Program-made: the position numbers and the translations under genes
The notes under the pieces: model-generated
What the model was told of the DNA's origin: nothing
Seen by the model: only the letters and a program-made list of their open reading frames with translations
Databases searched by the model: none
Source of the DNA: Escherichia phage 55
DNA length: 64,000 bases
Reading direction: 5' to 3' (one strand)
Sequence record: OQ599310
Shown here: piece by piece, positions 2,537 to 61,839 of the stretch
Numbering within the stretch: position 1 is the stretch's first letter
Layout: each line of letters begins with the position of its first letter

Positions 2537-3645
2537 TAGAAAGTCCCCGCATAAAGTGAAGAACGGTTTAATGTAATAATTTCTCGCATTGTTATCTCTA
2601 ACGTAAATGTTGACGGTAAGTTAGGAGCAACAGCAAGACCATTAAATTGTCCATTTGGAGTTTTATCAAAACGTACGCTTTGAATTTGACATGGGCCAAA
2701 TACATCAGTTAACCCGTCAAATTTAGATGTATAACCAAAGTTTTTAACCATCCAAATTGTAGGGTTACTTACAACTAATACATTTGTTAATGACGCAGTA
2801 ATCTTTTCAAACAATGTCTTATTTTTTACTGCATCGTCTGGCGTCATAGGCTCAATAAACGTTGAACGGTACCATTCGTCTAAATAACTTTTAATCTCTT
2901 GGGCGTACTGTGATTTACCGGTCTCACCATATGAGAAATAGTTAAAATACTGGTAAATGTTTATAATAGCCATAAGGTCTTCAGTTGAACGCGGAGTTAA
3001 ATCCCATGTAAAGACTTTAGTACGGTTCTCGGCACCACCATACATACTACGAGAAGTCGTATAAATCTGCTCGTTATTATCAGCCATAAGCCCTTGAGTA
3101 ATAGAATCTAATGCACCAAAAACTGCAGTAGAAGCAATGTTACTTAAAACACCTGTAGCAGTACCTCCACCTTTAGTAATAAGGCTATCACCGATATCAT
3201 TAAAACGATGTGAAGTTGTATCAACGTCAGATTTGGAACGTGGCAAAAGTATATTAGCAACAGGAGTTTTATTTATAGTAGATTTATTAGCTCCGGCAGG
3301 AAGCAACCCATTAGAGAATTTAGTCACTGCATCTTTCACGTTATCAGTTAAATCTGATATGATACCATTAGATGAAGTTCCGGCGTATGCCGGACGTAAA
3401 TTCCTGAGGGATCCTGAATCGCGTGCAGACATATTGTACGCGGTAAATAATAATCCATTCTTATAAAGGTCTGTTACCTGGAAGTCTCCTGTGGAGTCAT
3501 TTCCGGCTGCTCTTCCTGTAGGAAATTGAGCAACATAAGTTTTAGTAGTTGTTTCGGTTTTAGTGCTTTGCCCAGCACTTTCTGAGACTGGGATTGCTTT
3601 ATTTAAATCCTTTGCATCTACTACTATTTCTTTTACACTAATCAT
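2536..3645 (-). CDS. 48: baseplate tail tube cap gp48
   Basis: 369 aa; synteny between 54 and 29; stop overlaps gene 54 start. Confidence 0.8.
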   Translation of the reverse strand: MISVKEIVVDAKDLNKAIPVSESAGQSTKTETTTKTYVAQFPTGRAAGNDSTGDFQVTDLYKNGLLFTAYNMSARDSGSLRNLRPAYAGTSSNGIISDLTDNVKDAVTKFSNGLLPAGANKSTINKTPVANILLPRSKSDVDTTSHRFNDIGDSLITKGGGTATGVLSNIASTAVFGALDSITQGLMADNNEQIYTTSRSMYGGAENRTKVFTWDLTPRSTEDLMAIINIYQYFNYFSYGETGKSQYAQEIKSYLDEWYRSTFIEPMTPDDAVKNKTLFEKITASLTNVLVVSNPTIWMVKNFGYTSKFDGLTDVFGPCQIQSVRFDKTPNGQFNGLAVAPNLPSTFTLEITMREIITLNRSSLYAGTF

Positions 3646-3653
3646 AATAATCC

Positions 3654-13604: not shown

Positions 13605-13799
13605 ATGAGAGCTGAAGTTGAAGTTTATACATTACATGAGGCGGGATTTTCATTCGTAGAAATTGCTCAAAAAATTGGTTTACAACCTAAAGAAGTTGGA
13701 TTACTATGGACTAAAGCCGAGACAGCTCGGTCAAAGTTTAAAGCAAAAGAAAAAGTTGTATACCGTAAACGTTTGATTAACAAAAAGGTGAAGAAATGA
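13605..13799 (+). CDS. small basic hypothetical protein
   Basis: ATG 13605; ORF track start 13599 is TTG. Confidence 0.55.
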   Translation: MRAEVEVYTLHEAGFSFVEIAQKIGLQPKEVGLLWTKAETARSKFKAKEKVVYRKRLINKKVKK

Positions 13800-16526: not shown

Positions 16527-16543
16527 AAGATTGTTTACAACGT

Positions 16544-16572
16544 ATTTGGTATGTGATACTATAGACTTATCA
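16544..16572 (+). promoter_or_regulatory. early promoter for the ORF between genes 23 and 24
   Basis: GTTTACA -35, 17 nt, TGTGATACTAT extended -10. Confidence 0.6.
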
Positions 16573-16592
16573 ACTACAGAGGAGTAAACAAA

Positions 16593-48983: not shown

Positions 48984-48997
48984 TTTTCACAAAACAG

Positions 48998-49026
48998 TTT
49001 ACATAAGGATGATGGTGTGATACTAT
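48998..49026 (+). promoter_or_regulatory. early promoter with stem-loop upstream of ipI
   Basis: TTTACA / TACTAT; inverted repeat GGATGAT..ATCATCC. Confidence 0.65.
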
Positions 49027-49060
49027 CATCCTATCAAATAAACAACCTCAAGGAAATAAA

Positions 49061-49348
49061 ATGAAAACCTATAAAGAATTTATATCACCTGTTGCTAACG
49101 TTTCTACTCTGACCGAAGCAACCCTTACTTCCGAAGTTATTAAAGCAAATAAAGGACGTGAGGGTAAACCGATGATTAGTCTGGTTGATGGTGAAGAAGT
49201 AAAAGGTACTGTTTACTTAGGTGATGGATGGTCTGCTAAGAAAGATGGCGCTACTGTTGTTATCTCTCCGGCCGAAGAGACCGCACTGTTTAAAGCTAAG
49301 CATATTTCTGTAGCTCAGCTTAAAATTATTGCAAAAACTCTTCTGTAA
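49061..49348 (+). CDS. ipI: internal protein I (capsid-targeted, injected)
   Basis: 95 aa; N-terminal MKTYKEFI CTS; body matches remembered T4 IPI. Confidence 0.9.
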   Translation: MKTYKEFISPVANVSTLTEATLTSEVIKANKGREGKPMISLVDGEEVKGTVYLGDGWSAKKDGATVVISPAEETALFKAKHISVAQLKIIAKTLL

Positions 49349-49352
49349 GTAG

Positions 49353-49381
49353 TTTACATGCTGATAGGACTATGTTATAGT
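49353..49381 (+). promoter_or_regulatory. early promoter with stem-loop
   Basis: TTTACA / TATAGT; palindrome GATAGGACTA..TAGTCCTATC. Confidence 0.65.
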
Positions 49382-49416
49382 AGTCCTATCAAATCAACAA
49401 CCAAACGGAAAAACAA

Positions 49417-49680
49417 ATGAAAACCTATAAAGAATTTATCGCTGAATCTCAATCTTCTACTCTGTCAGAGAACTACGAATCATTCTCTTACAACAACGAC
49501 CATGCAATGTTCTACGACCGAAACATCGGTACTTATGTCCATGTATGGGGTGTTAAAGATGGTAATGTAGTTGTTAAGAAAAACTCTAAAGAAGGCAACG
49601 GACGAGGCCAGGTAAAAATTACCAGCAAGAAAGCTATCCAAGCTTACGTCGATTATGTTAAACGCGAAGCTGGTATTTAA
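49417..49680 (+). CDS. CTS-bearing internal-protein-like protein (87 aa)
   Basis: N-terminus MKTYKEFIAE; first 23 nt identical to ipI start; early promoter 49353-49381. Confidence 0.75.
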   Translation: MKTYKEFIAESQSSTLSENYESFSYNNDHAMFYDRNIGTYVHVWGVKDGNVVVKKNSKEGNGRGQVKITSKKAIQAYVDYVKREAGI

Positions 49681-49683
49681 TAG

Positions 49684-49712
49684 TTTACATGATGATAGGA
49701 CTATGTTATAGT
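49684..49712 (+). promoter_or_regulatory. early promoter with stem-loop (same as 49353 copy)
   Basis: Same 40-nt promoter/palindrome sequence. Confidence 0.65.
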
Positions 49713-49749
49713 AGTCCTATCAAATCAAATGAGTAAATGGAGAAATAAA

Positions 49750-49935
49750 ATGAAACGCGCTGAACTGATTCGTAATGTTGCTATAGTAATTGCTTCAATG
49801 GCTTTTAGTTTTTCGATGTTTGTAGGATTCATTTGTGGACTACTGACAACAACTGAAAACTCTATCTCATTGGTAGTAGCATTTCTAATCGGCTTAATCG
49901 CTATCGTTATGGATAAAATTGCAAAAGGTGAGTAA
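49750..49935 (+). CDS. small membrane protein (61 aa)
   Basis: Hydrophobic helices; RBS GGAG; early promoter 49684-49712. Confidence 0.6.
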   Translation: MKRAELIRNVAIVIASMAFSFSMFVGFICGLLTTTENSISLVVAFLIGLIAIVMDKIAKGE

Positions 49936-49936
49936 A

Positions 49937-50299
49937 ATGAAATATCACGTATATGCGGATTTTGAAGCAAATCCTTCTAAAGACCCGGATTGTCGTTTAT
50001 TCCGTAATCCGTTTGATTCAGCAGCTCAAGCATGGGCCTGGATTAAAACTTGTACTCCTTCTTACACTTTCTTTGAAGTGGTAGATGATAATGGTGTTTT
50101 GCATCCAGAACCTACAGAAACTATTAATTTCCTTCTGTTTGCTGGTTATGACTGTTATCCTCTTGGTGGTATTGACGACCTTGTTGCTACAGGAAAAACT
50201 GTCGAAGCTCTTCGCGAAATTTATAAAAACGCAGAAGAAAATTTTGACTGGTATCATATTGTTGATGCTCATACCTTTGAAGTGGTGGAACATTCATGA
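49937..50299 (+). CDS. hypothetical protein
   Basis: 120 aa; ATG overlaps upstream stop. Confidence 0.6.
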   Translation: MKYHVYADFEANPSKDPDCRLFRNPFDSAAQAWAWIKTCTPSYTFFEVVDDNGVLHPEPTETINFLLFAGYDCYPLGGIDDLVATGKTVEALREIYKNAEENFDWYHIVDAHTFEVVEHS

Positions 50300-50586
50300 T
50301 TCTTTATGCTAAGGTAAAATCCGTTGAGAATGGATATGAAAGCGATCAACGTGCAGCTAAAGCACTAGTCGATTACTATGGTATTTTGACCCACTTTGAA
50401 GTTGAAAAGGTTTACGTCGACCGTTCATCTTCACAGGTTAAATTACTTTGGGAAGACCGCAAATTTAATAGTGTGAACTTTGATTTCTTTATTGAAACAG
50501 AAAAAGGCCCTCTTGAATATGATATTTTCAAGAATCCTTTGAAATTACGTTGCATTGAATATAATTACATTAATATGGTACGGTGA
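50296..50586 (+). CDS. hypothetical protein
   Basis: 96 aa; translationally coupled. Confidence 0.6.
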   Translation: MILYAKVKSVENGYESDQRAAKALVDYYGILTHFEVEKVYVDRSSSQVKLLWEDRKFNSVNFDFFIETEKGPLEYDIFKNPLKLRCIEYNYINMVR

Positions 50587-50590
50587 TTAA

Positions 50591-51106
50591 ATGAATATTC
50601 GTTTAGGCAGTACAATTCCTAAGGGCTACGTAATTGATGTCACTACCTATGAAAATGATGGTGACAACTATAAAACCAAAACATTGTTTGAAGTGGAAGA
50701 GCATGAGCTCCAACAGTTTAAATATCTCTTGAAGAAATTTAAGAGCCGTCATTCTAGCACCAAAGCCGAACGTTATTGTGGTAATACACCATTCAGTGAT
50801 TGCTCGCTTTTAATCTATGAATACTTGGTTGAAGGGCTGTTCTCAGACCAGCTTTATCCAGAATTCATTAAAAAGGTCTTTGGTATTGAAGTCGACCTCG
50901 GTAATAAATCTGAAGAAGATGAATCACGTGTATTCGACCTGTTCTTTGTGAAAGGCGATGAGATATCTCAAGGTCTTATTGATATTCTTGGCTATGCTTC
51001 TGAATACTATGATTACGATTTCTTGCGTGTAGTTGAACGTGTCGAATTTGCTTATATTGAAGAAGAAATCGTTTTGCCAACCGTTAAAATGTTTGATTTG
51101 CTTTAA
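50591..51106 (+). CDS. hypothetical protein
   Basis: 171 aa ORF in early operon. Confidence 0.6.
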   Translation: MNIRLGSTIPKGYVIDVTTYENDGDNYKTKTLFEVEEHELQQFKYLLKKFKSRHSSTKAERYCGNTPFSDCSLLIYEYLVEGLFSDQLYPEFIKKVFGIEVDLGNKSEEDESRVFDLFFVKGDEISQGLIDILGYASEYYDYDFLRVVERVEFAYIEEEIVLPTVKMFDLL

Positions 51107-51123
51107 GAATAATTTGTTATTAT
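51096..51123 (+). promoter_or_regulatory. candidate middle promoter upstream of tRNA genes
   Basis: TGCTTTA 51099-51105, 12 nt, TATTAT. Confidence 0.45.
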
Positions 51124-51185
51124 TAATTCATACCCTCTATTACCAAAGGTGCTCTAAAGTGCCTTTCATAATAGAAAGTTATTTA

Positions 51186-51259
51186 GGCCCTGTAGCTCAA
51201 CGGTTAGCAGCAGTCCCCTCATAAGGGAAAGGTTACCAGTTCGAATCTGGTCTGGGTCA
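51186..51259 (+). tRNA. tRNA with CAU anticodon (Met or lysidine-Ile type), imperfect stems
   Basis: Hand-folded cloverleaf: T-arm ACCAG/TTCGAAT/CTGGT, loop CTCATAA; one acceptor mismatch, 3-bp D stem, one G-A in anticodon stem. Confidence 0.55.
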
Positions 51260-51265
51260 TATATT

Positions 51266-51342
<77 letters not shown>

Positions 51343-51360
51343 ACTTTAAGTGAGGAAAAT

Positions 51361-51705
51361 ATGAAAGGCAATGTTTATCTGGTAGTTCATGATTTAACGT
51401 TTTATTTTAACGAATATGATACAGTTATTTCTCATCGATTGATTAATTCGCTGTATCAGCATGCCGATTACATCTATGTTCAAAATGAATTTGGTCATTG
51501 GAAGTTCATTAAAAACCGTTCCGGGTTAACTAGTTTTGAATACTTTGACCGTAAAGACCTTTTAAACGAAATCCCATTGCAACATCGGTTTCAGAAACGC
51601 GAATCATTATATTATTGCCGTCATATACCAAACGCCGAATGTGTTGATGAAGCAATTAATCTATGGCGTAGACGTAGAGAACAAATTGATGATATGCCAA
51701 AATAA
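51361..51705 (+). CDS. hypothetical protein
   Basis: ATG 51361 after GAGGAAAA RBS; ORF-track start 51313 lies inside tRNA-Arg. Confidence 0.6.
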   Translation: MKGNVYLVVHDLTFYFNEYDTVISHRLINSLYQHADYIYVQNEFGHWKFIKNRSGLTSFEYFDRKDLLNEIPLQHRFQKRESLYYCRHIPNAECVDEAINLWRRRREQIDDMPK

Positions 51706-51719
51706 GAAGCCGGGTCGCT

Positions 51720-52006
51720 ACCGGCAAGACGTCGGACTGATGTTCCCTGAGTAAGGACTGGTCTTAATAAATCTTTATGATTCGTTAATATCCCCTTACA
51801 TCACAGCAGAAACGGCGCACAGAATTATCGATTCGAGGAAATATCTTTGCCGTAAGCCGAGTAGCGTTTTTGACGGAACGTTCGGATATGGTCGAGATAT
51901 GGCCTTTTAAAATATTGAGTAGCGTCAACTACTTAATAACCGGGTTCAAATCCCGGCGTTTCGTACAAACACTTACCTAGTAGGTGGAAACCCCGACAAG
52001 GTATAT
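51720..52006 (+). ncRNA. candidate small stable RNA region (T4 rnaC/rnaD-like?) with tRNA-like T-arm
   Basis: ~290 nt without ORF in the tRNA neighbourhood; hairpin GCCGG..CCGGC at 51710-51725; T-arm CCGGG/TTCAAAT/CCCGG at 51940-51956; no canonical cloverleaf. Confidence 0.3.
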
Positions 52007-52036
52007 AGCCCCTTCCGAAAGGTTGGGGCTTTTTTG
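52007..52036 (+). terminator. rho-independent terminator (repeat copy 1)
   Basis: AGCCCCTTCCgaaaGGTTGGGGCT then TTTTTT. Confidence 0.7.
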
Positions 52037-52044
52037 TATAAATA
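52037..52044 (+). promoter_or_regulatory. late promoter TATAAATA
   Basis: Exact TATAAATA 36 nt upstream of ATG 52080. Confidence 0.6.
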
Positions 52045-52079
52045 TAGTAAACAATAAACCTACTTTCTAAGGACCATCA

Positions 52080-52706
52080 ATGTATACTTTTAATGAATTT
52101 TTAGCCGAAACGGAAGTAATCACCGAAGCCGGTGTACGTATGACAAAAGAGAAGTGGCAAGCTGCTTACGATGCTATTTCTGGTACAAAAACTAGTACAG
52201 AGTTTTTCAAAAACGTTCAAGCCATGTACGGTATCGACACTTCCAGCCAAAAAGAATATTACAGAGCTTCTAAAGCATTCAAAGATATTGTTAGTGGTGG
52301 TGTTTCTGCTAAATCTGGTTCGCCTAAAGTAAAACCTGCTCCTACCACTCCTAAACCTGCGACCCCTAAAGCAGTAGCAAAACCTGAGCCTAAGCCGGAA
52401 GTAAAAGCAACTCCTAAAGCTCCTGCTCTTAAGTTTGATACTTCTAGCCTGGAAAAAAAATATAAACAACTATCTTCGCTTGTTCGTGATATTGAATCCG
52501 ATACATCTTCACTCGTTCGTGAATTCAACAGTCTTCGTAATGGCCAACATATCAACAACCTTGATACCCCAGACCTTTATCGTCTTTATTTGACTATTGA
52601 AGGTTTGAAGTACACTCAACCACTTCACGATGAGATTAAAGAAAAACTTCGTCAGGCAGGTCGTTTGGCTGCTGACGCTGCTCAGTATGCAAAAACCCGT
52701 AAATAA
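52080..52706 (+). CDS. CTS-like N-terminus protein with Lys/Pro-rich linker (IPIII-like?)
   Basis: 208 aa; MYTFNEFLAE N-terminus; own late promoter and flanking terminators. Confidence 0.7.
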   Translation: MYTFNEFLAETEVITEAGVRMTKEKWQAAYDAISGTKTSTEFFKNVQAMYGIDTSSQKEYYRASKAFKDIVSGGVSAKSGSPKVKPAPTTPKPATPKAVAKPEPKPEVKATPKAPALKFDTSSLEKKYKQLSSLVRDIESDTSSLVREFNSLRNGQHINNLDTPDLYRLYLTIEGLKYTQPLHDEIKEKLRQAGRLAADAAQYAKTRK

Positions 52707-52724
52707 TTAAGTTACAATCACTTA

Positions 52725-52750
52725 AGCCCCTTCCTATGGTTGGGGCTTTC
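52725..52750 (+). terminator. terminator-like hairpin (repeat copy 2)
   Basis: AGCCCCTTCCtatGGTTGGGGCT then TTTC. Confidence 0.55.
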
Positions 52751-52785
52751 GGGCATCTAGGGCAGATAAATTTTTCACAAAGTTG

Positions 52786-52813
52786 TTTACTTCTCCTTGA
52801 GGTATGATACTAT
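52786..52813 (+). promoter_or_regulatory. early promoter
   Basis: GTTTACT ... TGATACTAT; ends in TAGACCTATC repeat. Confidence 0.55.
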
Positions 52814-52843
52814 AGACCTATCAAAACAAATGAGGAAAACATT

Positions 52844-53347
52844 ATGAGTCTTTATACTGAACTGAATAAAAAATCTGAAGAATCGCGTGACGTTGTTTTT
52901 AAAAATGTACAAAAGCGTATTTTGGAAAAGATGTATGATGCTGCATCTAAAGGTGAAAAATCATGCCGCTTTCCGATGAGATGTTCTACAGATTTATGCT
53001 CAAATACTATTGAATGGTTAGAAAGCGAAGGTCTTACTGTAGAGAAAAACCCGGCGACTTCTATTGACGGTGAATCATATATTAGTATTTCTTGGGATAA
53101 ACCACAGGTTAATGAGAAAGACGGTGATTGGGTTGTGGATGTTAAGACTTCTGATGGTGGACGTTCTGTTGAAGTTTCAGCCGTAGTTAAAGGTACACAT
53201 GGGCAAAATAGCTGGGGATGTGGTGGTGAAGAAAAAGAAATTGTTCTTAGTGTGATTGCAAGGTCTACTAGCAATAAAATTGCCCAGAGCATCATCTATG
53301 CTGCATGTATCGAAGCTGGAAAAATTTGCAAAATTAAAAATAAATGA
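52844..53347 (+). CDS. hypothetical protein
   Basis: 167 aa; RBS GAGGAAAA; early promoter 52786-52813. Confidence 0.65.
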   Translation: MSLYTELNKKSEESRDVVFKNVQKRILEKMYDAASKGEKSCRFPMRCSTDLCSNTIEWLESEGLTVEKNPATSIDGESYISISWDKPQVNEKDGDWVVDVKTSDGGRSVEVSAVVKGTHGQNSWGCGGEEKEIVLSVIARSTSNKIAQSIIYAACIEAGKICKIKNK

Positions 53348-53376
53348 TGTACAAACACCATGGACGGTGTTACTAT
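53348..53376 (+). promoter_or_regulatory. early promoter
   Basis: TGTACA, 17 nt, TACTAT. Confidence 0.55.
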
Positions 53377-53404
53377 AGACCTATCAAATCAAGAGGAAAA
53401 CAAA

Positions 53405-53632
53405 ATGGCTAAAGTTAGTATTGATGTCGTTGATTATGAATACACAGAAGAAGTTATTCGCAACCGTCACCCTGAAGTTCGTATCGATTCAGCCCAAGAT
53501 TCCAAGTTCTGGACAACTGAGCTTAATCTGAGTGGTCCTTATGAAGCTGTTAAGAAGTTCATGGTTGAAGAATACTGTGAAGGCATGCACCCCGAAGACG
53601 CCAAGTTTTATGTCAATTTGATTAAAAAATAA
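53405..53632 (+). CDS. hypothetical protein
   Basis: 75 aa from ATG after GAGGAAAA; track start 53360 overlaps promoter. Confidence 0.6.
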   Translation: MAKVSIDVVDYEYTEEVIRNRHPEVRIDSAQDSKFWTTELNLSGPYEAVKKFMVEEYCEGMHPEDAKFYVNLIKK

Positions 53633-53661
53633 TTTACAAACTCTTGAGAGCAGAGTATAAT
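53633..53661 (+). promoter_or_regulatory. early promoter with stem-loop
   Basis: TTTACA, 17 nt, TATAAT; inverted repeat GAGAGCA..TGCTCTC. Confidence 0.7.
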
Positions 53662-53702
53662 GCTCTCATTGGATAATAAACCACCAATTGAAAGGTAATA
53701 AT

Positions 53703-54296
53703 ATGAACACACTGAAGAAACTTGTTGAATTCATCCGCACTAAACTGGGTACTGCTATGGCTAAAAATCTGACTGTCGAAGAACAGTATAACGCAGCTGC
53801 AGATAAGTTGATTACCCAAATCAAAGAACTAAAAACGGCTTCTGTTAAATCTATTAATGAAGAAAAACGTATTCGCGAACTTGTTAATGAAAAGAACAAG
53901 CAAGCCGCTTCTAAGGAACGTGAAATTCGTAAGCTCCTGGCTGAAGGACAAGATGTTACCATGCATGCTAAGCTTGGTCTTCTGTATCGTCGAACTGCCG
54001 AACAACTTAATACAAAAGCTGACGGGTATGCCGCTATGCGAATTGAAATTGCTCGTAAGGTGGTTGAACTTGACGATGCTCGTCAGAACCTGGCAATCAA
54101 ACTCGAATACATTCGTGAAACTCGAGCAGCCAATGCCCTTGGTATCTCTACGGCTGATGATGTAATTGAAATCGCTGCACTGACTAAGGTTGATATCGAA
54201 GACACTCTGACTCGTGTTGAAACGTTCAATGGCACTCCAGCTGGTGTCGAAACCACTTCTGCTGATGTACAAGAATATATTAACTCTTTGAAATAA
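53703..54296 (+). CDS. coiled-coil protein (possible PspA/IM30-like, unverified)
   Basis: 198 aa, long helical heptad-like sequence; early promoter 53633-53661; terminator 54305-54327. Confidence 0.6.
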
Positions 54297-54304
54297 AATA
54301 ATAC

Positions 54305-54327
54305 GGAGGACTCCGGTCCTCCTTTTG
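54305..54327 (+). terminator. rho-independent terminator
   Basis: GGAGGAC tccg GTCCTCC then TTTTGG. Confidence 0.7.
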
Positions 54328-54345
54328 GATAATAAAGGAGTTAAC

Positions 54346-54948
54346 ATGCGAAACCAAAATAATGATATTGACTCAATGTTCGAAGAGTTCCGAGATAAGG
54401 TAAATCCACCTACGTCCTTAGTTGATTCATTACGATATGTTGCAACCGGACGTAAATGGTACTGGTCGTCTTCTTATGAGACCACCGAGAAAACGGCTAG
54501 CCATAGCAGAAAATCTTTATTAGCCCCAGGTATTATGATTCATGATATCGGAGCTATTGCTAAACTAGTTGCAGACCATGATATTAGATTCACTGATTTC
54601 GTTGCTCCTACGTGGTCTGTTTGTTGTTTAAACACTGAATGGGAATATATCAGCGAACGCTCTGAAGATTATTATGGTTTTAGAGATAAGCTTCTGAGGT
54701 CTAATATGTTTTATATCGATACAGAAGTTCTAGTCGATAATAAAAAATATTACTTTACGTTAATCATCGATTCTGAAACTATGTATGAAGGCAAGCCTTT
54801 GCTTAAAAGAGTTGATGCTTTAAGTGCTATTGATGCGCTTTATGAAACTATGGTTGTTAGTCCTAATTTCACTAACAATTTAATCCTTGAGCAATTTATT
54901 ATGGAATGTAGAGAATATGTCAAAGCCAACCCTATACATGCCAAGTAA
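54346..54948 (+). CDS. hypothetical protein
   Basis: 200 aa; RBS AAGGAG. Confidence 0.6.
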   Translation: MRNQNNDIDSMFEEFRDKVNPPTSLVDSLRYVATGRKWYWSSSYETTEKTASHSRKSLLAPGIMIHDIGAIAKLVADHDIRFTDFVAPTWSVCCLNTEWEYISERSEDYYGFRDKLLRSNMFYIDTEVLVDNKKYYFTLIIDSETMYEGKPLLKRVDALSAIDALYETMVVSPNFTNNLILEQFIMECREYVKANPIHAK

Positions 54949-55312
54949 GCCCTGGGCGTATGAATACAAGCGTAAATTAATCCCAAATGAAGTACTATTT
55001 GGCCCTATTTTAGCTTTAGCATTTTTAATCTTTATGATTATAGGAGCTGTTTTAGATTCTAGTGAAGTTATATCGTCTGATGCAGCATTTTCATTAATGT
55101 TCGTCGCACCACTTATTGTACCGTTTTTATTAATGCCTATTAATTGGGCAGGATATTGGCACCAAGGCCGTCATCACAGAGCCCGATTAAGAGAATGGAA
55201 AGTTCAGTGCGCAAAAGCCCAAGCTCAGTATGATGAAGCTGTTAAAAAGTATGAATATGAAGAAGCTATGGAATTCGTTAAGGAAATAAGATGCAAAAGC
55301 CTCAACTCTTAA
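54917..55312 (+). CDS. membrane protein, C-terminal FVKEIRCK motif (start uncertain: 54917 or 54938)
   Basis: Two hydrophobic helices; overlaps upstream gene end. Confidence 0.5.
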   Translation: MSKPTLYMPSKPWAYEYKRKLIPNEVLFGPILALAFLIFMIIGAVLDSSEVISSDAAFSLMFVAPLIVPFLLMPINWAGYWHQGRHHRARLREWKVQCAKAQAQYDEAVKKYEYEEAMEFVKEIRCKSLNS

Positions 55313-55650
55313 CCGTATGGCCTTCTCTTGGTGAGAACATTCTAATTTTTATTATGAGTATTGGCATGGGATTTGCCTTTGGATTAGTTGGATTTCTTAT
55401 TGACGGAGTTGTGTTAGGATTTATAGGGAACACCGGTGGATTCACAGACCAATGGCAGGACTTACGATATACTCAAGCCTTTGCATCCATCGCATCATTT
55501 TGTACTGTAGTCTATTTTTACTACGATTTTATAAACCACAACAAGAAAAATAAAAAGGTTTACGCTTCTCAAATGATTAGTTATAATGAACTCCTAGCTA
55601 GACGTGAAAATGAAACAATCGAAAACTTTATTAAGGAATGTAGAAAATGA
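55291..55650 (+). CDS. membrane protein ending ENFIKECRK
   Basis: 119 aa, hydrophobic core; overlaps upstream ORF by 22 nt. Confidence 0.6.
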   Translation: MQKPQLLTVWPSLGENILIFIMSIGMGFAFGLVGFLIDGVVLGFIGNTGGFTDQWQDLRYTQAFASIASFCTVVYFYYDFINHNKKNKKVYASQMISYNELLARRENETIENFIKECRK

Positions 55651-55952
55651 GTAAGATTATTGAAATTAAAGTACCAGAGTTTAATGATGCCAAATCCGCT
55701 TCAGATGCAATTTATAAACTTCTGAATCAAGCTGAACGTATCGAAGAAGAAGCAACAAAGATCGCAGACCAATATGCTGTATCATTTTCTGTAGGTGATT
55801 ATGGTAGCGGTCGTACTTATTATCCTAAGGGTGAAATCGTATCCCAGTGGATGAAAGATGAAATTGAAAATAATGGCGGCGATGTTAAGCGTGAAGGTAA
55901 TGGATACGTTATTACTGAAGGTGCTTGGGTTTCGTCTTCTGCGTTGTGCTAA
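55647..55952 (+). CDS. small protein paralog A (C-terminal GAWVSSSALC)
   Basis: 101 aa; first of three tandem paralogs. Confidence 0.65.
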   Translation: MSKIIEIKVPEFNDAKSASDAIYKLLNQAERIEEEATKIADQYAVSFSVGDYGSGRTYYPKGEIVSQWMKDEIENNGGDVKREGNGYVITEGAWVSSSALC

Positions 55953-55961
55953 GGAATCATT

Positions 55962-56234
55962 ATGTCTAAAGAACAAACCGAACTGGCTGAAGCTGTAGCA
56001 AAAATCTATGCAGCTATTGAGGCTGCCAAAGAAATTGCTGATAAACAAAACACAACATTCGACTTGTATCCAGCTTATGGTATGGGTGGAACCTATCATT
56101 CACCCGGACATCTTAAAGCCGATCTTGAACGTTGTACAAAAAACGGCCAGGCTGAATGGGCTGACGTTTACCAATACGACTACAACCTGAGCCTTGAAGA
56201 TGGCGGTTGGGTTGCATCTTCTCACACTTGCTAA
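55962..56234 (+). CDS. small protein paralog B (C-terminal GGWVASSHTC)
   Basis: 90 aa; shares KIY..IE.A.EIAD and GxGGTY motifs with paralog A. Confidence 0.65.
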   Translation: MSKEQTELAEAVAKIYAAIEAAKEIADKQNTTFDLYPAYGMGGTYHSPGHLKADLERCTKNGQAEWADVYQYDYNLSLEDGGWVASSHTC

Positions 56235-56243
56235 GGAAATCAT

Positions 56244-56441
56244 ATGTCTCGTGAATTAGATTGTGCTGTACGTACCGCAGTAGCTGCTCTAGAAAACCTG
56301 TTCCAGATTGCAACCGAAGAGCGTGAAGAAGTTACATTGTGGATTGAAGATAACGCAGGTCTGAATCTCCAGGACGCGATCTCATTATCCCACAATAGTA
56401 TCACTGTTCAAGGCTGGGTATCGTCTAGTTATTCTTGCTAA
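56244..56441 (+). CDS. small protein paralog C (C-terminal QGWVSSSYSC)
   Basis: 65 aa; same C-terminal motif and same TAAGGAA-ATG junction. Confidence 0.6.
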   Translation: MSRELDCAVRTAVAALENLFQIATEEREEVTLWIEDNAGLNLQDAISLSHNSITVQGWVSSSYSC

Positions 56442-56446
56442 AACAG

Positions 56447-56475
56447 TTTACAACAAGATAGGGCTATGTTATAGT
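56447..56475 (+). promoter_or_regulatory. early promoter with stem-loop
   Basis: TTTACA / TATAGT; palindrome GATAGGGCTA..TAGCCCTATC. Confidence 0.65.
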
Positions 56476-56503
56476 AGCCCTATCAAATTAAATGGAGTTC
56501 ACA

Positions 56504-56743
56504 ATGATTTATTACGAAAGTATCGGAACCAAAGTGGTTGGTAAAACCATTACTCGTGAAAAGTTTGCAAAGATATTCGATATGCGTTATAAAAAATCTG
56601 AACACAAAGGCATCCGATTCGAAGATGCGCACTGTACAATTTGCCCTTATAATGAAGACATAAACGGTACAATCGTTCCATTGGTAGAGGCTTCACATGA
56701 TGACCTCTGGGATGAATATAATATCGCATGTCGTGAAATTTAA
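56504..56743 (+). CDS. hypothetical protein
   Basis: 79 aa; RBS GGAG; early promoter 56447-56475. Confidence 0.6.
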   Translation: MIYYESIGTKVVGKTITREKFAKIFDMRYKKSEHKGIRFEDAHCTICPYNEDINGTIVPLVEASHDDLWDEYNIACREI

Positions 56744-56767
56744 GTGAATTAATCCGAGGAAAATATT

Positions 56768-57724
56768 ATGATGTTAGTTATTGGTTCTCGTGCACTTCAC
56801 TATCATGGTCTTATTGATTCTAGCGCTATCAAAAATAGCGATTGGGACTTTATTGCGGACCAAGGTTCTTGGAATGCATTCAAAAATCAAATGATGGGTG
56901 TATATGTCCACCAAGATAACCCTGATGTCCAAGTTTTCAAATGCTTCCATAATGGACGCGAAACTCATTTTGAAGCATACATCGTTCCGGCTATCACTAA
57001 CGTTCGCGAACTAGTCGGTGAACTCACTCCTGAAGATTTCACGTCTTCTTATGACCTTTTAAAATACGCCAAGAAAAATTTGACTAAAGACCGTTTGAAC
57101 GGGTTTTACTGGGCAACTCCTGAGATATGTCTTGCAATTAAGATGTCTCATCGTTTCAAGAAAAATAATCCATTCTTTTTAAAGACTATGAACCATATTC
57201 AGTATCTTCGTGGTAAAGGTGTTACACTGAACGATGAACTTACTGAAATTATGCTGAAACGCCAGAAAGAAACCTTGAACTATGCTCACCCAGTTCTTGA
57301 CACTTCTAAAAGTGCGTTCTTTAAAGATGACATCTATACATATGACCATGATACTATTCATGAAGCCATTGCACTAACAGACCGTCCAGCGTATACATTT
57401 TATATGAAAGATGGTTCTGAAGTCATGACCTCACGCGAGAAGTTCGAATCATTACCAGAAATGGTCAAATTGGCCGGCGTATACGAAGAATCATGTGTAC
57501 TAGCGTTAGAACGTTCTCAGATTCCTAATAACTTTGAAATCCATCCACGTGATAGTTTTATGATGGCCCTTGAAAAGGTCTGTACATCAATCACATCAGG
57601 ATGGTTCCGTGAGTTCGCTTGGGAAAATTATAGCAAAGTAGTAAGTATGTACCAAAGCTTAGGACACGACGATTACGTCAAGCGTTTCAAACAAAACTTT
57701 CATATGGTAAAACCTTTCAAATAA
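56768..57724 (+). CDS. hypothetical 318-aa protein, possible nucleotidyltransferase-like N-terminus
   Basis: Largest ORF of the accessory region; N-terminal IGSRAL...SDWDFIAD pattern. Confidence 0.65.
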   Translation: MMLVIGSRALHYHGLIDSSAIKNSDWDFIADQGSWNAFKNQMMGVYVHQDNPDVQVFKCFHNGRETHFEAYIVPAITNVRELVGELTPEDFTSSYDLLKYAKKNLTKDRLNGFYWATPEICLAIKMSHRFKKNNPFFLKTMNHIQYLRGKGVTLNDELTEIMLKRQKETLNYAHPVLDTSKSAFFKDDIYTYDHDTIHEAIALTDRPAYTFYMKDGSEVMTSREKFESLPEMVKLAGVYEESCVLALERSQIPNNFEIHPRDSFMMALEKVCTSITSGWFREFAWENYSKVVSMYQSLGHDDYVKRFKQNFHMVKPFK

Positions 57725-57737
57725 TTTCACAAAACAG

Positions 57738-57766
57738 TTTACAAGGTCTGTAGTTGTTGATACTAT
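57738..57766 (+). promoter_or_regulatory. early promoter with stem-loop
   Basis: TTTACA, 17 nt, TACTAT; GGTCT..AGACC. Confidence 0.6.
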
Positions 57767-57804
57767 AGACCTATCAAAACAAATGAGTGAATGGAGATAT
57801 AAAA

Positions 57805-58005
57805 ATGACTACTTTGAATAAACGTTTCGGTAAAGCTAAACCTGGTTGTGCAGCAGAACGTCGTTATGTTTTCGCTCAGTTAGAAGATGTAGAGTATCAG
57901 ATTAATCAAGTTCACATTACTGGTATCGAGCCTATGTGTGGCCTTGAAGCTCTTCGTGAAGTTCGTGATGGGTATCGTCGTGTCATCGAAGAAATGTCAA
58001 AATAA
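57805..58005 (+). CDS. hypothetical protein
   Basis: 66 aa; RBS GGAG; early promoter 57738-57766. Confidence 0.55.
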   Translation: MTTLNKRFGKAKPGCAAERRYVFAQLEDVEYQINQVHITGIEPMCGLEALREVRDGYRRVIEEMSK

Positions 58006-58006
58006 G

Positions 58007-58035
58007 TGTACAAACTGATAGGACTATGTTATAGT
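58007..58035 (+). promoter_or_regulatory. early promoter with stem-loop (third GATAGGACTA copy)
   Basis: TGTACA / TATAGT. Confidence 0.6.
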
Positions 58036-58063
58036 AGTCCTATTAAAACATGAGGAGAATATT

Positions 58064-58369
58064 ATGAAATTAGGCGAAACCAACCGAATCGGTCTTTTAA
58101 CAATATTTGTATCACTTTTTTACGCAGCTCTTTCTGTTGCAGTATTACAAAAGGCTTACAGTATGGATGGTGTTCCTGGTTTTGTATTCTTATCGCCGTT
58201 TTTGCTATTCGTTGGAGCATTGTTATTATATGCCACGACTAGTTTCGACCATAACGTCTGGGTCAATTATAAATGTAAATTGTCTGAAGAAGAACACGCA
58301 GAAGCTCGTAAAAAAGCTATTGAATCTACCAATCTAGAAAATTTCATTAAAGAATGTCGAGGAAAATAA
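58064..58369 (+). CDS. membrane protein ending ENFIKECRGK
   Basis: 101 aa, two hydrophobic helices; early promoter 58007-58035. Confidence 0.65.
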   Translation: MKLGETNRIGLLTIFVSLFYAALSVAVLQKAYSMDGVPGFVFLSPFLLFVGALLLYATTSFDHNVWVNYKCKLSEEEHAEARKKAIESTNLENFIKECRGK

Positions 58370-58370
58370 T

Positions 58371-59057
58371 ATGAATAGTTCTAAAGTGTTTAATAGTCAA
58401 GCTCGTGCAGTAGGTGGTTTTGCCGGCGGTATTTCTAATGATAAAATCAAGAACGAGCCTATGTTCTTCAACTGTAGTTTAGAATTTGCTTATAATAACG
58501 GCGGTCCTATTACTCGCAGCTTCATCATGAACTTGCCGGATGATTGGAACACCGACCAGGTTGTATTTGATTCACGAGTCCATATGCTGATGCCTGGTTG
58601 GTATCCTGCTATTCCTGGTTATCACCATGATGACGTACCACGCCCGGATATTCCGGTTGGTCAACATTTTATTACTGCAGGACAACCTGACTATGACAAT
58701 CCTCGCTATTTGTCTGAACATATTCTTGGTCTTGTTAACGCTGATGTGTGTCCTACTCATTTTGCAACAGGAACTGCAGAGTTCAGTCAGATTCCTGATG
58801 GCGAACTTATCTATCGCCAGTGGCACAAAGAAGTCCTCGAAAAAATTGAAAAAGGTGAACTAGAGAAATGGGAAGCTCCGGACCGTACTCTTCTTCAGTT
58901 TGATTGGCAAACATGGCACACTGGTTCTCGTGCAATTAGTAATGGATGGCGTTGGTTCGGACGTGTATCTCGTAATACAGACCGAGTTAAAAAGATTACC
59001 AATGAAATTCGTGTCAACGCTCAAGTTTATCTAGAATTCCCTATGGAAGGCTGGTAA
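58371..59057 (+). CDS. hypothetical 228-aa protein
   Basis: His/Trp-rich (GYHHDD, TWHTG); no confident family assignment. Confidence 0.6.
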   Translation: MNSSKVFNSQARAVGGFAGGISNDKIKNEPMFFNCSLEFAYNNGGPITRSFIMNLPDDWNTDQVVFDSRVHMLMPGWYPAIPGYHHDDVPRPDIPVGQHFITAGQPDYDNPRYLSEHILGLVNADVCPTHFATGTAEFSQIPDGELIYRQWHKEVLEKIEKGELEKWEAPDRTLLQFDWQTWHTGSRAISNGWRWFGRVSRNTDRVKKITNEIRVNAQVYLEFPMEGW

Positions 59058-59548
59058 TGATTAACAAAACATATTGGTCTAATATTGACGACGGCAATGA
59101 AGGTATTTCGTACTATTCAGTGGATTGGACAGAATGTCCATCCTACTTAGTGAAACGTATTTGCCAAGAATTTAAAATCGACCAGCCAGCAGGTATTATC
59201 GTGAACAGATACATTAACGGATATCAACCTATCGATGAAGTAATACGAACAACTCAAGCTGATCTTGAAAAGTTTTTCAATAAGTGCCAATGGATAACAG
59301 GATGGATTATATTTGTACCGTCGGTATGGTTTTTTAGTACTAAGGTGAGTTCTTTCGGTTTTGTTGATATTATTGCTATCTTATTAGCATCTATTATCGT
59401 AAGTATAATTGGTGGTATAATTGGTGGAGGTACTATAGGCATCATTATTAATCTTGTTAAAAGTAGTTTACAGGAACGTAAAGACAAGATAAAGGCCAAG
59501 AATAACGAAGTTGAACGTTTTATTACCGAATGCAGGAATTTGAGATGA
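59057..59548 (+). CDS. membrane protein ending ERFITECRNLR
   Basis: 163 aa; soluble N-domain, Gly/Ile-rich TM segment. Confidence 0.65.
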   Translation: MINKTYWSNIDDGNEGISYYSVDWTECPSYLVKRICQEFKIDQPAGIIVNRYINGYQPIDEVIRTTQADLEKFFNKCQWITGWIIFVPSVWFFSTKVSSFGFVDIIAILLASIIVSIIGGIIGGGTIGIIINLVKSSLQERKDKIKAKNNEVERFITECRNLR

Positions 59549-59781
59549 GTATAGCAATTTACATTAAATCAGAATCATGCGATAGTTATCTGTACACGTA
59601 TGATAAAGATGTGTCAGAAGAAAAAATCAAAGACGATCTTAATATGGACCTTGATTTGTTCCGTCCTATTGCAGATTACAAACTTGCGGTCTCTAATAGT
59701 GAAAGTCCATCTAAAGAAACGCGCATTGAAGAATTTATGTCCGAATTAATGGCCAAATCATGGGACAGAGATGATGAGTAA
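59545..59781 (+). CDS. hypothetical protein
   Basis: 78 aa; start ambiguous (59530 or 59545). Confidence 0.5.
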   Translation: MSIAIYIKSESCDSYLYTYDKDVSEEKIKDDLNMDLDLFRPIADYKLAVSNSESPSKETRIEEFMSELMAKSWDRDDE

Positions 59782-60229
59782 GAAAAATAAAGTGAAAGAA
59801 CTATCAGCCGGTATTATTTTCCTTACCGAAGATAAAGAATTATTCATGGGCCGTGTAACTGGTTCTCGTTCTAAAGGTGCATTAGCTCATCGGTGGGATA
59901 TTCCTAAAGGCCGTGTCGAACCTGGCGAATCTCCTATTGAAGCCGCTATTCGTGAATGCGAAGAAGAAACTGGGTTTACACAATATGACCCTGCCTTCCT
60001 GAAAGACCTAGGTGAGCATCATTACTCAGACAATAAGAATATTCATCTGTTCCTATATACCATCCCTGTAGAGCACGAGCAATTCAGAAACAGTGTTTGT
60101 AATTCCTATCATACATTCCCAGACGGACGACAAATTCCTGAATTTGATGCATTCGCTTTAATTAAACCTTCTCAATGGGAATATGTAATGGGCAAATCGT
60201 TATATAAGGTGCTCACTACCCTCCTATAA
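59771..60229 (+). CDS. nudE: Nudix hydrolase
   Basis: Nudix box GRVEPGESPIEAAIRECEEETG; immediately upstream of e as in T4. Confidence 0.9.
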   Translation: MMSKKNKVKELSAGIIFLTEDKELFMGRVTGSRSKGALAHRWDIPKGRVEPGESPIEAAIRECEEETGFTQYDPAFLKDLGEHHYSDNKNIHLFLYTIPVEHEQFRNSVCNSYHTFPDGRQIPEFDAFALIKPSQWEYVMGKSLYKVLTTLL

Positions 60230-60236
60230 GTAATAA

Positions 60237-60262
60237 ATACCTCCTATAAACGTGGGAGGTAT
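60237..60262 (+). promoter_or_regulatory. hairpin sequestering the Shine-Dalgarno of gene e
   Basis: 8-bp stem ATACCTCC / GGAGGTAT; SD GGAGG sits in the 3' arm; loop TATAAACGTG. Confidence 0.7.
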
Positions 60263-60263
60263 T

Positions 60264-60752
60264 ATGAATATATTTGAAATGCTTCGTAATGACGAAGGTC
60301 TTAGACTGACTTTATACAAAGACACTGAAGGCTTTTGGACAATTGGCATAGGCCATTTAGTAACAAAGAACCCGTCTTTAGCCGTAGCTAAAGCTGAACT
60401 CGACAGAATGATCGGACGTAAATGCAACGGTACAATTACCCTTGATGAGGCTGAAAAGCTATTTAATGAAGACGTTGATAAAGCCGTTCGCGGAATTTTG
60501 GGTAATGCTAAACTTAAACCGGTATATGATTCTTTAGATGCGGTTCGTCGATGTGCATTGGTCAATATGGTCTTCCAAATGGGTGTAGCAGGCGTCGCCG
60601 GTTTTACTAATTCTCTTCGTATGCTTCAACAGAAACGTTGGGATGAAGCGGCAGTAAATCTAGCCCAATCTAAATGGTATCGTCAGACACCTAATCGCGC
60701 GAAACGCGTAATCTCAACATTTAAAACAGGAACTTGGAAAGCGTATATATGA
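60264..60752 (+). CDS. e: lysozyme (endolysin)
   Basis: MNIFEMLR...DEAEKLFN...[13 protein letters not shown] matches T4 lysozyme; start ATG 60264 after GGAGG; track start 60252 is GTG. Confidence 0.97.
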
Positions 60753-61030
60753 AAACATATAGCGAATTTTTATCAGAATCTATTCTTAACGAAGCTACTG
60801 ACACATTTGCAACTAAGCTAGGTGCCGCTTTGGTTGAAGCCGAAAGTCTATTAGCACGTATTTCTGAACTTGCTAGTAAGATAGATACTCGCAAATTTGA
60901 GCGCACCAGTGATATCGTTAAGCTTGAAGCACTGTTGCGTATGTGCGATAAACCCGAAGAAATCGCTAAGAACGGCTCGCTGATGAAACAACGTCTTGAA
61001 AAATATATTTCAGGCGCTTCAGAAAAATAG
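60749..61030 (+). CDS. CTS-bearing internal-protein-like protein (94 aa; IPII/IPIII position)
   Basis: N-terminus [10 protein letters not shown]; ATGA overlap with e stop. Confidence 0.75.
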
Positions 61031-61032
61031 TG

Positions 61033-61062
61033 TTTACTTCCTCCAAGGGTTTTGATACTATA
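61033..61062 (+). promoter_or_regulatory. early promoter upstream of denV
   Basis: GTTTACT ... TGATACTAT. Confidence 0.55.
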
Positions 61063-61088
61063 CATCTATCAACTACTTGGAGGAAATT

Positions 61089-61502
61089 ATGACTCGTATC
61101 AATTTAACACTTGTTTCTGAACTGACCGACCAACATCTTATGGCTGAGTATCGTGAATTACCACGCGTATTTGGTGCAGTCCGTAAACATGTTCAAAATG
61201 GTAAACGTGTAAAAGATTTTAAAATCTCTCCAACATTTATCTTAGGCACAGGTCACGTAACATTCTTTTATGACAAACTCGAATTTTTACGTTTACGTCA
61301 AATCGAGCTAATCGCGGAATGTTTAAAACGCGGTTTCAAAATCAAGGACACGACAGTCCAGGATATTTCCGACATTCCTGTAGAATTTCGTAATAATTAT
61401 GTCCCGTCCGAAGCGTCCATTTCGATAAGTCAAGCACGCTTAGATGAAAAAATTGCTCAACGTCCGACTTGGTACAAATACTATGGTAAATCAATTTACT
61501 AA
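61089..61502 (+). CDS. denV: endonuclease V (pyrimidine dimer DNA glycosylase)
   Basis: [12 protein letters not shown]...[10 protein letters not shown] matches remembered T4 DenV; track start 61077 is TTG. Confidence 0.95.
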
Positions 61503-61509
61503 GGAAAAA

Positions 61510-61839
61510 ATGAAAACATATCAAGAGTTTATCACTGAAGTTACATTATCTGCGGAACAGAAAGCTGCTATCGAAGAAAGTAAAAATCCCAAAGTAACAT
61601 ATAAAGTAAATAGTAAAGGCGTTTTTGATGGCTTGGTTCAAGACCCTGAATTGAAAAAAGCTCTTTCTAAAACTAATGCGTACTTTGCTCCTAAATTTAA
61701 CACAGCAGGTGTACTTATTGGATTGGATGTATTCAACTCTAAAGGTGTTCTATCTAATGCCTTTGGTTATGCCGCTAACAAAATTACCAAAGCCGCATGG
61801 GAATCCAATACCAAACAAGCTCAAAAGCCTAGAGTATAA
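61510..61839 (+). CDS. CTS-bearing internal-protein-like protein (109 aa)
   Basis: MKTYQEFITE at internal Met after AAGGAAAAA RBS. Confidence 0.75.
   Translation: MKTYQEFITEVTLSAEQKAAIEESKNPKVTYKVNSKGVFDGLVQDPELKKALSKTNAYFAPKFNTAGVLIGLDVFNSKGVLSNAFGYAANKITKAAWESNTKQAQKPRV

Follow-up and report, generated by a model that had tools for sequence, protein, structure and literature searches.

What are the short (45–65 nt), near-identical sequences that stand in front of one small open reading frame (ORF) after another in the genome of Escherichia phage 55, and what could be the role of the inverted repeats that many of them carry? This question was addressed here on 64,000 nucleotides of sequence record OQ599310 (hereafter referred to as the window), where most of these elements cluster within positions 48,997–61,089. 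Between 48,800 and 61,200, the window displays 96–97% identity to Mosigvirus genomes, such as vB_Eco_NicPhage and vB_EcoM_G53 (hereafter G53), and by its sequence the phage is an RB69-like Mosigvirus of the Straboviridae. The gene order there is 57B/ipI, two tRNAs, the e.x genes, nudE, e and denV, all on the + strand; this ipI–tRNA–e–denV stretch is the classical T-even hyperplastic region, and structural genes fill the remainder of the window. We propose, with a probability of about 0.65, that the elements are early promoters of Mosigvirus, served by σ70 and the host RNA polymerase (RNAP) and organised as promoter–leader cassettes, that their hairpins form on read-through RNA, and that they support gene shuffling of the type described for promoter-early stem-loops (PeSLs).

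A promoter motif repeated on one strand

The motif GTTTACA-N17-TAYWRT, with at most one mismatch, occurs 12 times in the window where 1.47 matches were expected, and every match is on the + strand. The repetition reported by an earlier note on this DNA is thus real and beyond chance. A repeat search of the window returned one 48-nt family (7 copies) and one 30-nt family (6 copies), and manual curation led to 13 elements, all 13 on the + strand and in the same direction as the genes. Their −35 boxes (7-nt GTTTACA) start at 1189, 16533, 48997, 49352, 49683, 52785, 53347, 53632, 55558, 56446, 57737, 58006 and 61032. Eleven of them fall within 48,997–61,089, which represents 19% of the window (binomial P = 6e-7), and the two others (1189 and 16533) are found ahead of small inserted ORFs. 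The earlier note had counted at least a dozen copies between 48998 and 61062, a number reached in the window as a whole but not in that range, where there are 11; it had also placed two copies in the structural block, at 1190 and 16544, both of which are real, although the latter starts at 16533. The elements and the features attached to them are listed below (ΔG in kcal/mol; type B is explained further on).

1189–1247, + strand: element before the small ORF downstream of alt; weak 5-bp stem only; RB69 orthologue Pe:125323.
16533–16592, + strand: element before a small ORF in opposite orientation between the major capsid and vertex genes (gp23 and gp24); no hairpin.
48997–49060, + strand: element before the ipI-like ORF (ATG 49061), −10 TACTAT; hairpin at 49006–49032 around the −10, a stem of 12 bp (2 G·U) formed by AGGATGATGGTG and TACTATCATCCT; ΔG −16.8, z −5.7.
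49352–49416, + strand: element before the internal-protein-like ORF 49417–49680, −10 TATAGT; hairpin at 49362–49391, including an exact 28-mer (49363–49390); ΔG −17.7, z −6.0.
49683–49749, + strand: element with the motif before the trna.4 homologue (ATG 49750); hairpin at 49693–49722, including the exact 28-mer (49694–49721); ΔG −18.2, z −7.0.
49347–49756, + strand: cassette between two 76-bp direct repeats (49347–49422 and 49681–49756).
52726–52749, + strand: terminator-like GC hairpin, GCCCC…GGGGC then TTT, recognised by visual inspection, some 35 nt before element 52785; not called by the terminator scan and not annotated in G53.
52785–52843, + strand: element with a 16-nt spacer before ORF 52844–53347; no significant hairpin.
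53347–53404, + strand: chimeric element (ATGTACA) before frd.3 (ATG 53405); no significant hairpin.
53632–53702, + strand: element (ATTTACA…TATAAT) before the e.6 homologue, with no ATCAA tail; hairpin at 53645–53668, TGAGAGCA/TGCTCTCA around the −10; ΔG −13.8, z −4.8.
55558–55646, + strand: weak candidate internal promoter inside the e.3-like ORF; no hairpin, no tail; its RB69 orthologue, Pe:70143, has a score of 4.9 only.
56446–56503, + strand: element with the motif before ORF 56504–56743; hairpin at 56457–56484, with a G-C pair where relatives show A-T or G·T; ΔG −18.7.
57737–57804, + strand: element with the motif before ORF 57805–58005; hairpin at 57744–57772, in which AGGTCTGTAGT pairs with ACTATAGACCT (1 G·U); ΔG −16.6, z −4.7.
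57715–58069, + strand: complete element–ORF–element cassette.
58006–58063, + strand: element with the motif (GTGTACA) before ORF 58064–58369; hairpin at 58016–58045, including a 27/28 copy of the 28-mer; ΔG −15.5.
61032–61088, + strand: element of the type B form before denV (ATG 61089); its spacer TTCCTCCAAG (61038–61047) is complementary to the Shine–Dalgarno (SD) region CTTGGAGGAA (61076–61085).

The consensus derived from these copies comprises a −35 box GTTTACA, a spacer of 16–17 nt, an extended −10 of the form TGn-TAYWRT, and a discriminator/start block AGNCCT-ATCAAA, in which the hyphen separates discriminator and start. The TGn is present in 11 of the 13 elements, as is the AGNCCT-ATCAA (CTATCAA-type) tail, which is missing from 53632 and 55558. 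Judging from the sequence, transcription probably starts (+1) at the A of ATCAAA. An SD sequence and an ATG are found 21–53 nt downstream of each of the 13 elements, after an A/C-rich leader that measures 21–35 nt in the consensus layout. The resulting promoter–leader cassettes are compact and take up all of the sequence from a stop codon to the ATG that follows, and the 40 nt upstream (A+T content 0.60–0.80 vs 0.62 window-wide) are mostly coding, the stop codon lying 0–14 nt from the −35 box in nine elements.

The GTTTAC −35 box, the TGn −10, the extra conserved positions and the orthology are those of the T-even early-promoter class. T4 early promoters have been described as 'über' promoters in which UP, −35, TGn and −10 are combined with extra consensus regions (PMC2988021), and the same design is found in T4 before regB, denV, ipII, ipIII, e.6, e.7, e.8, trna.4 and ipI. 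Nolan et al. (2006) predicted 58 RB69 early promoters, with a preference for C at −3 to −1 (PMC1524935, Additional file 3); those orthologous to window elements are Pe:64934, 67959, 69254, 70143, 72069, 72354, 76459, 76812, 77187, 109605 and 125323. Statements on experimentally mapped T4 early promoters follow Hinton (2010) and general background on T4; the RefSeq records of T4 and RB69 contain no promoter features, and the literature collection searched yielded no paper on 5'/3' end mapping in the T4 group.

A generic σ70 consensus scan revealed no enrichment in the region (49 found vs 43.7 expected), and only the phage-specific extended motif is informative. A first position weight matrix, trained on the window copies and hence circular, was used solely to show strand exclusivity. 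Rfam gave no match at the elements, the two tRNAs alone passing the curated threshold. A further match to GTTTACA-N17-TACTAT occurs at 13678–13707, within a small ORF upstream of the rnlB region; this match is doubtful and has neither tail nor hairpin. It may correspond to the RB69 early promoter Pe:112451 (Nolan et al.), and could be an internal promoter or a chance match.

Hairpins that enclose the −10 box

When the 48 nt from the −35 box onwards were folded and z-scored, a strong hairpin was found in 7 of the 13 elements (48997, 49352, 49683, 53632, 56446, 57737 and 58006), with ΔG values of −13.8 to −18.7 kcal/mol and z-scores of −4.7 to −7.0. The same folding gave nothing significant for 1189, 16533, 52785, 53347, 55558 and 61032. 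The suggestion that the −10 lies inside an inverted repeat therefore holds for seven elements, to which a long-range form can be added at 61032, and fails for the five others. All seven hairpins have the promoter spacer as 5' arm, and their 3' arm runs from the last part of the −10 through the discriminator into the first bases of the transcript. Each stem is A/T-rich and has 3–5 G-C pairs.

Three identical copies of one sequence had also been reported. The 28-mer is exact at 49363 and 49694 only; the copy at 58017 has one mismatch (terminal C>T), and the positions first given for the three were off by 1–2 nt. A fourth copy, at 56457, has two mismatches, A>G and T>C, which are mutually compensatory. 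In all, at least four different stem sequences occur in three registers, all enclosing the −10, with 5' arms as different as GATAGGACTAT, AGGATGATGGTG, AGGTCTGTAGT and TGAGAGCA, and the register of the stem shifts by up to 7 nt between elements. Since both arms and register differ from one element to another, selection would act on the pairing and not on the sequence.

Based on the partner of the spacer, two forms can be distinguished. This partner is the −10/discriminator/+1 block in type A and the SD of the gene itself in type B. T4 denV and regB display the same spacer–SD pairing as the denV element 61032, and in the G53 orthologue of this element the spacer–SD duplex reaches −17.3 (z −5.4). 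For a genome-wide view, the G53 genome was joined from five pieces; it contains 43 credible elements, all on the early strand, of which about 15 are of type A and about 5 of type B. Type B elements in G53 and T4 include those of regB, denV and others.

Sense folds of the G53 elements are stabler than antisense folds (Wilcoxon on z, p = 4e-5), and among the strong stems 29 G·U pairs were counted in sense vs 8 in antisense. When G·T and A·C were scored on equal terms along the pairing register of each stem, the result was 26 G·T vs 14 A·C, the latter mostly at helix ends; this excess points to sense-strand structure, probably RNA. Covariation was followed in 29 distinct family members, where 91.4% of cells are paired vs 32–57% in slid-partner controls. 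Both sides change in 8 of the 12 pairs, and one stem pair occurs as AU in 19 members, GU in 6 and GC in 4, with zero unpaired cells. At the site orthologous to 56446, the pair is A-T in JN02, G·T in G53, pEK20, HY126 and RB69, and G-C in the window.

The design extends beyond Escherichia phages. An IMG/VR scan for the 28-mer with one pair left free returned four contigs only, and the GenBank phage collection was used instead. A near-identical hairpin promoter, with compensated arms and the same discriminator/+1 block, was found in Acinetobacter phage Berthold (560–2800 of the compared piece) and Aeromonas phage 25 (600–660). Examples from these distant phages read GTTTACA..GATAAGGCTATGGTATAATAGTCTTATCAAATCAA and GATGGGACTAT..ATAGTCCCATCAAATCAA, and AGNCC(T/C)-ATCAAAT is conserved across hosts.

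Recombination junctions within the elements

The window was compared with six relatives (G53, Mizar, JN02, pEK20, HY126 and RB69). In 7 of about 10 indel or replacement events, at least one junction lies inside an element and chimeric elements remain. One of these events is the loss or gain of window 49423–49680, which carries the internal-protein-like ORF and one element: this segment is absent from JN02, pEK20, HY126 and RB69 and replaced in Mizar, and the joint is the 76-bp repeat made by elements 49352 and 49683. In pEK20, JN02, HY126 and RB69, an extra 165-nt ORF is located between two elements of which window element 53347 is a chimera, with a junction repeat at 53368–53411. JN02 has an insertion of one element and one ORF exactly at element 53632. 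Window 57745–58005 is absent from pEK20 and RB69, the joint being at the two −35 boxes, and the chimeric element is visible at the pEK20 57737/58006 joint. RB69 differs by an additional internal-protein cassette, with its joint at window 49029–49083, and by a replacement (window 52043–52829) whose right-hand junction is in the 5' untranslated region (UTR) of element 52785. Finally, a replacement in Mizar ends within the leader of element 49683. Crossover points vary, from the −35 box at 57737/58006 to the surroundings of the −10/+1 at 53347.

Three events are element-free: the insertion of a tRNA-Asn with a homing endonuclease, a replacement in the 3' part of ORF 52844–53347 (JN02 and RB69), and an internal-protein insertion joined via a 39-nt repeat that codes for a capsid-targeting peptide. 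The first corresponds to window 51259–51339, where Mizar and HY126 have a tRNA-Asn between tRNA-Met and tRNA-Arg (compared pieces 4008–4880 and 3638–4507, respectively); the homing-endonuclease-like ORF (NUMOD3) of this locus is annotated in Mizar, and the corresponding stretch of HY126 is unannotated.

Of the cassette ORFs, ORF 49417–49680 was found in 28 phage records and ORF 57805–58005 in 121, vs about 147 with a neighbouring gene at ≥90% identity. The block 57715–58069 shares 93.3% identity over 357 nt with Tequatrovirus G50, where it is found at another locus, behind a nucleotidyltransferase gene and a terminator, and where the sequences on either side of it are unrelated. Element 16533, which has no co-directional upstream gene and whose RB69 orthologue is Pe:109605, has a 5' UTR identical to that of the 165-nt cassette ORF of the relatives. 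The comparison of cassette content that the earlier note had recommended thus came out in its favour, with most junctions in elements and one cassette at another locus in another genus.

Comparison with described PeSLs and related systems

A PeSL was defined as an upstream stop codon, a σ70-type early promoter, a stem-loop, an SD and an ATG (PMC2839356), and the stem-loop, in which G–T pairs were noted, mostly occupies the interval from −35 to −10 or overlaps the latter box (PMC2839356). PeSLs are enriched in hyperplastic regions and at indel junctions (PMC2839356, PMC4122927). In RB49/phi1, Arbiol et al. (2010) reported that cloned PeSLs are strong promoters, that mini-circles between PeSLs can be detected, and that one stem-loop lowered downstream lacZ as much as rrnB T1 (PMC2839356). 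The window elements resemble those of RB49/phi1 in their layout, their hyperplastic clustering ahead of small ORFs, the indels they flank, and the chimeric elements left after excision. In contrast to RB49 PeSLs, which have near-perfect TTGACA/TATAAT boxes and polyG/polyC stems, they display GTTTACA, TGn-TAYWRT and A/T-rich stems, and the conserved discriminator/+1 block (AGNCCTATC) serves as their 3' arm. Measurements of promoter, attenuator and mini-circle activities come from RB49.

Comeau et al. (2014) extended PeSLs to PST/T4 and nt-1/KVP40 and recognised 'degraded' PeSLs that, like five of the window elements, have no stem-loop (PMC4122927). The window shares with the PST/T4 PeSLs the consensus TTTACW-N17-TAYWAT and the link to indels or replaced ORFs, including the internal-protein locus. 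Stem-loops are drawn in that paper just upstream of the promoter, an arrangement encountered once in the window (52726–52749 before 52785), where the stem inside the promoter is the commoner form; this latter form also exists in T4, at ipI, ipII, ipIII, e.7 and trna.4. The RB69 promoter study draws no connection between promoters and gene shuffling (PMC1524935), and a search of its text found no mention of stem-loops, hairpins or inverted repeats. Anatomy, hyperplastic clustering and indel junctions all fit the published definition, in agreement with the earlier note, and the window is a further clear instance of an already described class of elements and not a new kind of system. New here are stems that are not canonical terminators, a sense-strand (probably RNA) signature, a second form that would mask the SD, and one cross-genus cassette.

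Type B elements are reminiscent of the masking of ribosome-binding sites in T4. There, transcripts that start further upstream can sequester the SD in a hairpin, and those started at a promoter inside that hairpin are made without the 5' arm. Such start-site-dependent masking is reportedly found in T4 genes e, soc, 49 and I-TevI, as in the work of McPheeters and colleagues in 1986. In classical T4 masking, late or middle promoters switch the gene on late, whereas in type B the internal promoter is early and its own spacer is the 5' arm. The morons of lambdoid phages also consist of a single accessory gene with its own promoter and a terminator-like element; their flanking signals are, however, not thought to mediate movement (PMC2839356), in contrast to the flanking repeats of the window, which are recombination sites.

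Weighing the explanations

As in the PeSL papers, the hairpins could be classical Rho-independent terminators of the upstream gene. They lie 1–20 nt past the upstream stop codon, and the lacZ result in RB49 is in line with this idea, as is the lack of hairpins in G53 where a canonical terminator already precedes the promoter: 0 of 5 such elements have a hairpin vs 19 of 38 others (Fisher p ≈ 0.06), a trend that is suggestive and not significant. A copy of element 57737 that follows a canonical terminator in G50 (1413–1767 of the compared piece) has a stem decayed to G·T wobbles (AGACC>AGATT), a single case that fits dispensability of the hairpin beside a terminator. Yet the sequence behind each + strand hairpin is an A-rich tail (AAATCAA or AAAACAA), the stems are A/T-rich with few G-C pairs, and none was picked up in the terminator scan or in the G53 annotation, where canonical ones are marked. 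A true terminator, with a GC hairpin and a T-run, is present at 54305–54322, where it was called by the scan and is also annotated in G53; that at 52008–52035 was placed by eye and is annotated in G53 but was not called by the scan. With no U-tract, the element hairpins are not canonical Rho-independent terminators, and this identity was rejected. Classical termination is unlikely, and the RB49 result, obtained with G/C-rich stems, may not transfer to them.

Three further explanations were considered. If the elements were plain early promoters, with functionless inverted repeats that hitch-hiked through duplication or gene conversion, it would be understandable that four of the seven window hairpins belong to one sequence family (GATAGGRCTAT…) and are possibly copies, that five or six elements presumably work hairpin-free, and that the 3' arm is conserved as promoter sequence regardless. 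Such hitch-hiking hardly accounts for the pairing of one common downstream block with four or more unrelated 5' arms (GGATGATGG, AGGTCTGTAG, TGAGAGCA and GATAGGACTAT) in three registers, for compensatory A-T, G·T and G-C states at one orthologous site, for the margin between 91% paired cells and 32–57% in the slid controls, or for compensated arms in Acinetobacter and Aeromonas phages, and we regard it as improbable. Little more credit can be given to a structure at the DNA level, either a cruciform or single-strand hairpin tuning promoter opening or supercoil sensitivity, or a site of cutting or initiation (e.g., by endonuclease VII) that would turn the element into a hot spot of recombination. 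Junctions are indeed located within elements, and DNA hairpins tolerate G·T, which makes the sense bias compatible with a hairpin on the non-template strand. Crossovers are nevertheless spread across the element, as ordinary homologous recombination between short repeats predicts, the SD pairing of type B is meaningful only in RNA, and a cruciform requires both strands to pair, whereas antisense stems are clearly weaker. Least probable is an operator at which a dimeric phage or host protein binds the palindrome to shut off early transcription. Repressor sites classically take the form of a palindrome over the −10, the way in which T4 early transcription is shut off is explained only in part (PMC2988021), and GATAGG…CCTATC arms are conserved in three phage genera. 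This reading was rejected, because the arms are wholly different between elements, covarying rather than conserved, and the stems differ in register by as much as 7 nt; the dyad symmetry of the DNA is also broken by the G·T asymmetry, and half of the early promoters have no repeat.

Several points also weigh against our own proposal of early promoter cassettes with hairpins on read-through RNA. Promoter use and the +1 are predicted from the motif and from orthology to predicted early promoters of the RB69 and T4 type. The hairpin is not obligatory, 5 or 6 of the 13 elements having none. Hairpin copies are often paralogues or orthologues and not independent events, so that covariation and wobble counts overstate independent changes, estimated at roughly 12–15 for G·T vs about 3 for A·C. 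As G·T is the most tolerated mismatch in DNA hairpins, the sense bias cannot separate RNA from non-template-strand DNA. The missing U-runs and scan calls, the unlikely classical termination and the G53 trend count here as well, and the 'terminator' half of the PeSL definition finds no support in the sequence. Since indels are viable only if they fall between genes, where promoters are also located, junctions were compared with an 'intergenic only' null, and their enrichment in elements is then modest (about p = 0.02).

A possible role for the hairpins

How could promoter and hairpin work together? According to the proposed mechanism, an otherwise free spacer would have evolved complementarity to the downstream sequence in about half of the elements, and transcription would start inside or after the 3' arm. 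With the predicted +1 within the 3' arm, the RNA made from the promoter itself cannot form the stem, which is accessible to read-through RNA only (or to single-stranded sense DNA). We infer that on read-through RNA, type A hairpins may attenuate or pause the polymerase, or provide a protected 3' end, and that in type B the SD would be masked; in both cases, a cassette would be driven by the promoter that it carries. Whatever the hairpin does, near-identical repeats of 45–80 bp every 0.3–3 kb are a substrate for homologous recombination, by which the intervening ORFs are deleted, inserted or swapped in a PeSL-type modular shuffling. What the sequence shows are the motif, the hairpins with their covariation and sense-strand bias, and the recombination junctions; promoter activity and the action of the hairpin are inferences.

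A broader idea can be put forward tentatively, and we hold it to be doubtful at this stage: the spacers might encode a conserved RNA-level insulator, a design that selection would preserve, even down to the arms GATRGGACTAT / ATAGTCCYATC, in T4-like phages infecting Escherichia, Acinetobacter and Aeromonas, and that would make cassettes autonomous wherever they land. If true, this would explain how cassettes shuffle freely and offer a general rule for reading Straboviridae early regions.

Other features of the region

Five ORFs (starts 49061, 49417, 52080, 60749 and 61510) begin with the N-terminal capsid-targeting peptide of T4 internal proteins, MKTY(K/Q/S)EF(I/L)xE, with the variant MYTFNEFLAE at ORF 52080. 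The 30–40 nt coding for this peptide are a recombination repeat in their own right, as illustrated by the internal-protein gene insertion of JN02, HY126 and RB69, joined at 61502–61540. A late-promoter-like TATAAATA is found at about 52039–52046, ahead of the internal-protein-like ORF 52080. At 60225–60262, the lysozyme gene e has its SD within a hairpin, TACCTCC…GGGAGGTA, that contains a late-promoter-like sequence, as in T4 e; this hairpin is annotated as a terminator in G53.

The stretch 51700–52002 is homologous to rnaD and rnaC, the stable RNAs of T4 also called species 2 and 1 (90.5% identity over 306 nt). No Rfam family covers it, and the CDS annotated there in G53 is probably spurious. 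An odd 94-nt 'tRNA-Lys' called by ARAGORN (51873–51966) lies inside the rnaC homologue. Three small tandem paralogous ORFs (101, 90 and 65 aa) occupy 55647–56441, with no elements between them, and share the C-terminus G-x-W-V-(S/A)-S-S-x-x-C.

Implications for T4-like phages

The window provides an RB69-group example of the way in which small accessory genes, including those for internal head proteins and possible anti-defence factors, are acquired and lost by T4-like phages, with repeated promoter cassettes as crossover sites, even between genera. For the PeSL model, the sense bias and the spacer–SD pairing sharpen the point of what the stem-loop is for. In annotation, the elements delimit early transcription units, and they are usable in the engineering of therapeutic-type phages.

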